The translations under genes and the position numbers were made by a program. The notes under the pieces were generated by a model. That model was not told the DNA's origin. It saw nothing but the letters and a program-made list of their open reading frames with translations, and made no database searches. Positions 1,930 to 2,684 of a DNA stretch of 5,545 nt are shown here, piece by piece. How positions within the stretch are numbered: position 1 is the stretch's first letter; every line of letters starts with the position of its first letter. The stretch is from a virus (taxonomy: Duplodnaviria > Heunggongvirae > Uroviricota > Caudoviricetes): positions 1 through 5,545 of the IMG/VR virus record IMGVR_UViG_2534681774_000013; one strand, given 5' to 3'.

Positions 1930-2684
1930 TCACTATTACCAAAGGGCGACTGCTGACAATCAAGCAGTGGCGCGAAACATACGGACCGGGTAGCAACGTT
2001 GTACTGCCAGCAGAAGAAGCGGAAGAACTGGCACGAATTGCACTGGTATCGCTGGAAGCAGAGCCGGTGGCAAAGATTATAGCTCATTACCCATTAGGAG
2101 TTGACGTAGGCAAACAAAAGTTCGTACAGGCCATTGGAGAGCTTCCTGACTTTGGCGGATATCTATTTGCCGCCCCGCCAGCGCCGGTAGTGCCGGAAGA
2201 AGCAACTCCGGAAAACGTAGAAATGCTCTCTGGCTATGTTTCCACGTACAAATTAACCGATAGCGAGCGCGATATTGCTGCCGAAATATGGAACGCCTGC
2301 CGCACCGCCATGCTTCAGTCCGGAAACTTTCGGGAAAGCAAGAATTCGTCAACCAATAATTTTCGGGAAATCCCGGAAGCGTCAACCAGCTCTCCGGTAA
2401 CTCCGGCTCTTCTGCCTGGTGGTTTCACCATTGAGGAGGCGAAGGAATTACATGAAGACCTGGTACGCAGCCACATAAGCAAGGCCTTAAGTGGCGAAAA
2501 GATGAAAAAGAAAGATCGCGATGCTGATTTGCGCTGGATTCATGGCGTTATAGTTCAGGCAGCGTGGTTTGTAAAAGCATCACTGGAGCAGAATGCACTA
2601 TCGGGCAACTCTCCGGTAACTCCGGATGGTTGGATAAGCTGTAGTGAGCGAATGCCGGACGACAGGCAGGAGGTGAATCAATGA
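1926..2684 (+). CDS. Hypothetical prophage protein (252 aa) with Pro-rich linker, internal repeats and a possibly truncated C-terminal domain
   Basis: ATG 1926 with AAGGA (1913-1917) 8 nt upstream and ATGA overlap with the upstream frame. Contains AAPPAPVVPEEATPENV, a duplicated NFRE motif and two SPVTP motifs. Ends DGWISCSERMPDDRQEVNQ, which resembles the start of a W-I-S-x-x-E-R-L-P domain I recall from prophage proteins (DUF551-like; uncertain). Confidence 0.6.
   Translation: MITITKGRLLTIKQWRETYGPGSNVVLPAEEAEELARIALVSLEAEPVAKIIAHYPLGVDVGKQKFVQAIGELPDFGGYLFAAPPAPVVPEEATPENVEMLSGYVSTYKLTDSERDIAAEIWNACRTAMLQSGNFRESKNSSTNNFREIPEASTSSPVTPALLPGGFTIEEAKELHEDLVRSHISKALSGEKMKKKDRDADLRWIHGVIVQAAWFVKASLEQNALSGNSPVTPDGWISCSERMPDDRQEVNQ

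Follow-up and report, generated by a model that had tools for sequence, protein, structure and literature searches.

Mosaicism of lambdoid phages is explained in an established model by homologous recombination at short conserved boundary sequences (PMC3233612, PMC2327257). These boundary, or linker, sequences go back to the modular theory of Susskind and Botstein (1978) and to the study of HK620 by Clark et al. (2001), both as cited in PMC3233612 and PMC2327257, and the minimal homology has been put at ~30 bp (PMC2327257). There has been a long debate over whether phage mosaicism arises by this route or by random illegitimate joining followed by selection (PMC3233612, PMC2327257). The Ea22, EaA and DUF551 proteins of the exo-xis region are known to be mosaic, DUF551 has been termed "portable" and a segment of 16 amino acids (aa) common to Ea22 V1 and V2 is unexplained (PMC10834534). 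Here we describe a short in-frame stretch of linker DNA, which we call the joint, in a gene for a 252-aa protein of a lambdoid prophage; the window analysed is the whole of a 5,545-nucleotide (nt) stretch of DNA, positions 1 to 5,545 of IMG/VR virus record IMGVR_UViG_2534681774_000013. Our results on the anatomy of this gene, the nucleotide-level conservation and combinatorial contexts of the joint, an allele with an exact deletion and the domain boundaries suggest that modules are quite probably swapped, lost and gained by recombination at conserved in-frame linker DNA. The boundary-sequence model of Susskind, Botstein and Clark, acting between protein domains, is the best supported reading of these data.

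The joint and its surroundings in other phages

Two kinds of repeat had been noticed in the gene from the sequence alone, and both were borne out. A degenerate 33-bp tandem repeat, which reads in frame as NFRESKNSSTN and then NFREIPEASTS, matches at 24 of 33 nt, a value that codon shuffling of the gene did not reach in 500 trials (mean, 15.3; maximum, 21). Our repeat search grouped its units as one family (D2; 31 nt at 77%), and Tandem Repeats Finder skipped the pair as too degenerate. The 19-bp direct repeats at 2388-2406 and 2607-2625 do lie 219 nt apart from start to start and in the same frame (SSPVTP and NSPVTP). They are in fact one base longer, with 20 nt at 19/20 identity and an identical 17-nt core, CTCTCCGGTAACTCCGG. 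No direct repeat of this length arose in 200 codon shuffles, and the 17-mer occurs twice in the window, against an expectation of 0.01 when up to three mismatches are allowed. The segment that these repeats bracket had been given as 73 aa; this figure is correct as the period, while the stretch strictly between the SPVTP motifs is 68 aa long (aa 161-228). Three features went beyond the sequence-only reading: copy 2 of the direct repeat sits in a joint of ~55 nt, the copy number of the 33-bp unit varies and the DUF551 domain has been deleted.

A megablast search of 50,697 phage records with the gene gave matches in 377 records, only 73 of which covered at least 80% of it. Among the matches listed, most records have only short pieces of the gene, at query positions 1-134/146, 364-479 or 663/679-737. 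The last of these (window 2588/2604-2662) is the commonest, being 94 to 100% identical in hundreds of phage records that include 933W (L0140), HK620 (hkaE), P22-like Salmonella phages (eaA), cdtI, BP-4795 and many Shiga toxin (Stx) phages; the matches from other phages stop at 2656-2662. On translation, the genes that carry this piece have a constant ...GN-SPVTP-DGWISCSERMP... peptide and unrelated sequence upstream of it. The exact 17-mer was present in IMG/VR at a minimum of 127 sites in at least 120 phage contigs, and all listed sites are in the same frame. Mean pairwise nucleotide identity at these sites is 0.29 to 0.33 until 20 nt upstream of the 17-mer and ~0.31 from +60; in between, it is 0.63 for the 10 nt immediately preceding the core and 0.94, 0.68, 0.56 and 0.57 over the next 40 nt. 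As identity is raised to 0.6-1.0 only from -7 to +48 of the 17-mer, the joint is an island of ~55 nt.

The joint is found in many combinations. The 50-aa flanks at the listed sites fall into 22 upstream and 20 downstream clusters, which occur in 50 pairings; 14 upstream types pair with two or more downstream types (maximum, 7) and 7 downstream types pair with two or more upstream types (maximum, 15). The downstream partners include several very different DUF551 cores, a module beginning WVMVPKRLTAENGAK..., others beginning GHIQFSVSLP... and DVRRMDWLVSK... and M3, the segment between the direct repeats. P1/P7-type phages as well as lambdoid phages of Escherichia, Shigella and Salmonella have the joint and its modules, which lie beside int/xis in some cases and in the nin region in others. 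Species-representative genomes with an exact match to a 24-mer of the joint belong to Kluyvera, Citrobacter and Escherichia. The same 24-mer was also seen on a 2.7-kb contig (L320; JAJXBQ010000315.1) binned into a metagenome-assembled genome of Segatella copri; this is probably contamination by a mis-binned enterobacterial phage contig.

Linker DNA that is near-identical among lambdoid and P1-like phages of the Enterobacteriaceae, with the SPVTP repeat as the core of one joint, would allow upstream modules to be exchanged against downstream modules by recombination inside the joint. As genes that are otherwise unrelated carry an identical, in-frame joint, the exchange would preserve the reading frame. 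We infer that the mechanism is homologous or short-homology recombination, which could be of the Red/RecET/Erf type or RecA dependent.

It is also conceivable that selection acts on the peptide alone, with the motif kept as a functional linker, a short linear motif or the first strand of DUF551, diversity arising through unrelated illegitimate events and the identity of the DNA playing no role. The peptide GNSPVTPDGWISCSERMP is strongly conserved, WISCSERMP lies within DUF551 profile positions 1-16 and variants (YPVTP, SPVIP and SPGTP) are tolerated at the SPVTP position, all of which would suit such an explanation. Codon usage argues against it. DUF551 genes were sampled by degenerate back-translation of the C-terminal peptide [HDF]WMPLPE, which avoids selection on the joint DNA, and the 58 distinct genes obtained, which are not independent samples, have the majority codon at 740 of 758 synonymous-capable codons of the joint (97.6%). 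Codons such as TCT (38/38), GTA (49/50), ACT (51/51), ATA (56/57), AGC (56/56), TGT (58/58), AGT (58/58) and CGA (48/53) are almost frozen, and ATA and CGA are two of the rarest in Escherichia coli. The codon that follows immediately, for the Pro of RMP, is split between CCG (27 genes), CCT (22 genes) and CCA (9 genes), with a majority of 47%. As a control, the equally conserved 3' peptide HWMPLPEPPQE, 60 aa downstream, has the majority codon at only 452 of 541 positions (83.5%), and the DUF551 cores between the two motifs are of at least 10 types that are less than 40% identical. Hence, frozen synonymous sites stand beside deeply diverged domains, and selection on the peptide does not explain the conservation of the joint. 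Moreover, copy 1 of the direct repeat precedes M3 and not DUF551, yet has the identical 17 nt, and the junction of an exact 219-bp indel lies in the repeat. An explanation by the peptide alone is thus unlikely. The codon pattern fits DNA that recombination keeps homogenising or spreading.

The near-frozen synonymous sites, the rare ATA and CGA codons just ahead of the domain and a modest predicted hairpin might instead indicate an element that acts as nucleic acid (the target of a nuclease or site-specific recombinase, an RNA structure or target of a small RNA, or a rare-codon translational pause), with recombination being secondary. The predicted fold of the joint (-24.4 kcal/mol; z, -1.73) is not significant as 13 of 200 shuffles folded equally well; there was no Rfam match in the window, and a scan for promoters and terminators detected nothing above chance. 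The only recombinase gene nearby is int, and the joint has no constant neighbour across the ea and nin regions and P1-like phages. We consider that an element of this type is very unlikely to be the primary cause of the conservation.

The M3 cassette, the spacer and the DUF551 end

Modelling of aa 145-245 with AlphaFold2 (AF2) on a diverse alignment gave a mean predicted local distance difference test (pLDDT) score of 79, with values of >90 for aa ~164-224. Helices are predicted at aa 169-183 and 195-225, and both linkers have scores of 48-58 and no secondary structure. A model of the whole protein, with a mean pLDDT of 34 on a shallow alignment, was discarded and replaced by this one. The predicted domain boundaries coincide with the joint, and the confident core with low-confidence flanks indicates that M3 is, according to the model, an independently folding module; there was no sign that M3 is an invariant part of one compact domain. 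A Foldseek search of M3 against the PDB returned only generic helical hairpins (E >1), and neither structure nor sequence comparisons brought up a relative with a known function.

M3 is found in many other proteins. A search with M3 alone against 1.84 billion representative proteins found 84 clusters, 75 of them at E values of 1e-10 or lower, in proteins of 36 to 585 aa in which M3 is located anywhere from the N-terminus to residue 461. Close copies of the E. coli type are entered via xPVTP (SPVTP, HVTP or YPVTP) and left via ALSGN-SPVTP, -YPVTP, -SRLIPGEV... or -YPDIPDS.... Distant copies (50-75% identity) follow coiled-coil segments, form the end of the protein and have no SPVTP flanks, which indicates that M3 is an older autonomous module that was placed between joints in this gene pool.

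Homologues lacking the segment do exist. A 170-aa protein (...NNFRKIPEASTS-SPVTP-DGWISCSERMPDDRQEVNQ) encoded in L071, L101, L132 and L013 (the C-terminal part only in L013, at a contig end) corresponds to P0029, an allele of 243 aa, less exactly 219 bp; the junction falls within the 17-nt core of the repeat. Alignment of the L071 gene to the window and to the gene of an Stx2a phage showed one clean 219-nt gap whose ends fall within the repeat. Over ~1.1 kb, between the start of the gene and a point 485 nt beyond the gap, L071 differs from a contig with the P0029 allele (L318) by five substitutions and the gap only. A 100-nt query across the M3-less junction was searched in 5,426 complete E. 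coli genomes: some part of it was present in 2,406 genomes, Stx prophages being among the matches, and at least 80% was covered in 746, which include single-piece 100/100 matches and two-piece matches spanning M3. The M3 entry junction was found at ≥80% coverage in 309 of the complete E. coli genomes. By rough subtraction, the M3-less form, in which NFRE leads to DUF551, is at least as common as the M3 form.

Since 17-20 nt of the joint are repeated ahead of M3, the M3 cassette is bracketed by direct repeats, and recombination or slippage between these repeats would remove exactly 219 bp. Given an identity of only 17-20 nt, slippage or short-homology annealing is more likely than a RecA-type exchange. 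The proposal of a linker-bounded module, gained or exchanged by recombination in a mosaic accessory protein, which had been put forward from the repeats, is thus supported by the M3-less alleles, the mobility of M3 and the structure model.

We also considered whether the repeats are chance or low-complexity products and the variant alleles are assembly artefacts. There are duplicated forms, P0001, P0022 and P0023, each on a single contig, in which M3 or the NFRE-SPVTP block is repeated with a period of ~72-100 aa; these could be reciprocal unequal-exchange products at joints or assembly artefacts, and they are not used as evidence here. The shuffles and the expected count of the 17-mer given above speak against chance, and the deletion allele is present in several independent viral contigs as well as in the single-piece matches in many complete genomes. 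An artefact of this kind is hardly credible.

The 33-bp tandem always lies between xCRxAMLQ(S/A)GN and (S/Y)PV(T/I)P and leads to at least three downstream modules, namely, M3, DUF551 and EVLSAILK.... Two units are present in 127 of 128 linkers of homologous proteins, the exception being P0145 with a single unit. Among 57 distinct AMLQxGN linkers from all fetched viral loci, a retrieval-biased sample, 44 have two units, six have one and seven have none. A lone unit may be of either type (NFRENKNSSTx or NFREISETSTx), and the form without a unit reads AMLQAGN-SPVTP; the zero- and one-unit forms sit in different gene contexts. The tandem is an old, diverged duplication of an 11-aa spacer within the GN/SPVTP joint, with occasional loss of a unit, and units would be gained and lost by the same type of event as M3. 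A contingency locus, phase variation or a variable-number tandem repeat was rejected in view of the low identity between the units (73%) and the near fixation of two copies.

The joint leads, in this gene, into a domain that is largely missing. The match to PF04448 is above threshold (24.0 bits against a gathering cut-off of 22), yet apart from a short stub the whole domain of ~68 positions is absent. Close homologues, P0005 (302 aa; 99% identical) and a 291-aa Stx2a-phage protein, have a complete DUF551 ending in HWMPLPEPPQEV. Homology to these breaks at ~2662 and, from 2666 on, the window is ~99% identical to the end of the complete DUF551 gene of PhiR12_1 (...PLPEPPQEVNQ, stop) and to the sequence downstream of it, which shows that an in-frame deletion has taken away the DUF551 core. 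The allele with the stub is widespread, as its 90% cluster holds 401 member sequences and the same tail is present on P0029 and P0008. In other relatives M3 runs straight into ALPEPPQEV and a stop, which points to independent DUF551 deletions with different breakpoints. The 3' end of the cassette (PEPPQEV, with AGGAGG for the next gene) acts as a second, looser joint. The DUF551 genes in L134-L213 were also seen to share the conserved 3' end HWMPLPEPPQEV and the AGGAGG ribosome-binding site, as a cassette with conserved ends. The small open reading frame (ORF) that follows lies outside the repeats and marks the kept 3' end of the DUF551 cassette; its DNA is identical in PhiR12_1, and a diverged counterpart, MIWPEAFAITGVAMAIAFLVYVICRCG, is found in L012 after intact DUF551 genes, downstream of P0005. 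The product of the small ORF may be a membrane protein that is translationally coupled to the gene upstream.

The 252-aa gene and its prophage setting

The gene as a whole (Table 1) is 100% identical to a gene of Escherichia phage PhiR5_1 (XSB41271) whose product is recorded as Ea22. We rejected this name because the protein has no match to PF13935; the stub of DUF551, 16 residues long, is its sole Pfam match. The best explanation of the protein is a chain of small modules connected by low-complexity linkers. Many phages, including P1/P7 and Stx phage 86, have only the N-terminal module in common with it (megablast; query 1-134/143/146), alternative N-termini are fused at ARIALASLEAEPV, the match to phage ev017 is limited to query 364-479 and, in other proteins, AMLQAGN continues directly into SPVTP with no spacer. 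Searches of PHROGs and NCBIfam yielded no function, and the intact homologue P0005 had no match when its sequence was searched against the PDB. Like other exo-xis or ea proteins, the 252-aa protein is probably non-essential, an early-operon product with an accessory or host-interaction role.

Four families, phrog_14306, phrog_24004, phrog_924 and phrog_15198, match the 252-aa protein through linker peptides only (aa 120-162 and 226-240). It follows that shared joints chain unrelated proteins in family clustering and annotation, and linkers of the present kind explain why this occurs. The names given to such proteins range over Ea22, EaA, DUF551 and even dTDP-6-deoxy-L-hexose 3-O-methyltransferase.

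Table 1. Positions in the window of the 252-aa gene, its repeats, joints and modules and the neighbouring genes
Feature	Position	Strand	Details
252-aa mosaic accessory protein gene	1926-2684	+	exo-xis / ea region, upstream of xis and int
N-terminal module	1926-2069	+	aa 1-48; ends in joint ARIALVSLEAEPV
Segment swapped for unrelated sequence in Stx2a-phage homologue	2202-2305	+	ATPENVEML...AAEI against MYWQDAPVEG...YATG; DNA alignment
Joint WNACRTAMLQSG, ahead of spacer	2289-2324	+	aa 122-133
Spacer unit 1 (NFRESKNSSTN)	2325-2357	+	
Spacer unit 2 (NFREIPEASTS)	2358-2390	+	matches unit 1 at 24/33 nt
Direct repeat copy 1 (S-SPVTP)	2387-2406	+	17-nt core at 2390-2406
Module M3 (ALLPGGFT...EQNALSGN)	2406-2609	+	aa 161-228; mobile helical hairpin of ~60 aa
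In-frame joint (S)GN-SPVTP-DGWISCSERMP, entering DUF551	2602-2656	+	identity profile and codon table; may extend to 2659
Direct repeat copy 2 (N-SPVTP)	2606-2625	+	17-nt core at 2609-2625
DUF551 stub	2628-2675	+	aa 235-250; profile positions 1-16 of 68
In-frame deletion junction (...RMPDD/RQEVNQ, stop)	2662-2666	+	homology to L002/P0005 ends at ~2662
Small ORF of 27 aa, hydrophobic (MSWPDAIVTLGVVFAAAFVVFSICRWG)	2681-2764	+	start overlaps stop of 252-aa gene (ATGA)
Ead/Ea22 gene	863-1411		PF13935 match at 2.3e-34
DUF4222 gene	2769-3011		
Excisionase gene	3168-3422		DUF1233
Integrase gene	3456-4742		Arm-DNA-bind_2 and Phage_integrase
IS66-type TnpA	starts 5153		

The prophage is lambdoid, and the window is its integrase-proximal end; positions 862-4781 have 98.9% identity to PhiR5_1. 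The insertion site is mlrA (yehV), as window 4784-5068 matches MlrA positions 18-112 of 243. The remnant of mlrA is truncated by the prophage at one end and an IS66-family element (TnpA accessory protein; window 5153-5545) at the opposite end. Upstream of the 252-aa gene, a 171-aa gene (window 1413-1929) is frameshifted and split into ORFs 1380-1691 and 1585-1929 by one extra C near 1684 (TTTCCAG; TTTCAG in PhiR5_1 and other relatives, which have an intact gene), so that either a pseudogene or a sequencing error is indicated. The three-gene cassette of Ead/Ea22, the 171-aa gene and the DUF551 protein lies in the nin region in some prophages (L009-L012, between the replication genes and hok/DUF968/rusA/Q) and beside xis/int in others (the window and L317-L319).

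Proposed recombination at the joint and comparison with known systems

Several points weigh against recombination at the joint as the source of this diversity. The act of recombination was not directly observed, and the natural alleles are only consistent with it. The same pattern would be left if a single successful joint, formed by illegitimate recombination, had been selected and had spread. The intragenic repeat, at 17-20 nt, is shorter than the minimal efficient homology of ~30 bp (the full joint is ~55 nt), and the 219-bp indel may have arisen by RecA-independent slippage rather than through a recombinase. The contig samples give lower bounds, are phylogenetically non-independent and are in part selected by motif, and the alleles would fit deletion as well as insertion of M3, with either state ancestral.

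Slipped misalignment independent of RecA deletes sequence between short direct repeats. The present locus resembles this process in having a direct repeat of 17-20 nt, 219 bp apart, and a natural, precise deletion that keeps one copy. It differs in that the repeat copies a joint found throughout the gene pool, and insertion of M3 from another gene could equally give the structure. Polymorphic toxins offer a second comparison: demarcation motifs, such as VENN in CdiA and PxxxxDPxGL in Rhs proteins, are conserved as peptide and DNA ahead of a hypervariable C-terminal cassette that is displaced by recombination. By analogy only, SPVTPDGWISCSERMP precedes DUF551 cores that are less than 40% identical. 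In contrast to these systems, the present locus has no toxin/immunity pair and no arrays of orphan cassettes, and the variation is between versions of one small fold or between unrelated small domains.

A bolder view is that the joint is an actively maintained, phase-preserving "adaptor" for combinatorial shuffling of small host-interaction domains by enterobacterial temperate phages, both lambdoid and P1-like; its synonymous sites, including the rare codons, would be preserved through selection for recombinability or through a dedicated function at the level of nucleic acid. We put this forward as a speculation that is rather doubtful; if true, it would be a prokaryotic-virus analogue of exon shuffling.

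A description of the present joint, the M3 cassette or spacer-unit variation was not found in the searched literature, which left out Clark et al. (2001), and a literature search on "SPVTP" found no phage paper. The closest published material concerns Ea22 V1/V2/V3 and DUF551 of Stx phages (PMC10834534; PMC7093339), which come from the same genome region and protein pool; L0140 of 933W, which is Ea22 V2, has ...LQNALSGNSPVTPDGWISCSERMPD. The window protein differs in having no Ead/Ea22 (PF13935) domain, and the published mosaicism is descriptive and at the protein level. The unexplained 16-aa segment of V1 and V2 may well be the present joint because the commonest context of the 17-mer, among the listed sites, is KLERLQNALSGN-SPVTP-DGWVMVPKRL....

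In summary, this locus is a well-documented case of known phage mosaicism and involves no new mechanism. In the debate over how mosaics arise, it is a compact and testable example of the homologous boundary route inside a gene, as it combines a joint with frozen sites, dozens of module combinations and an allele pair that differs by a repeat-bounded cassette. The boundary sequences of lambdoid phages are likewise short stretches conserved at the DNA level at module borders, with unrelated flanks and a proposed role as targets of recombination, and hkaE of HK620 carries the present joint. Critically, the joint described here is, unlike those boundaries, intragenic, lies between protein domains and preserves phase, and what it shuffles is domains and not genes.

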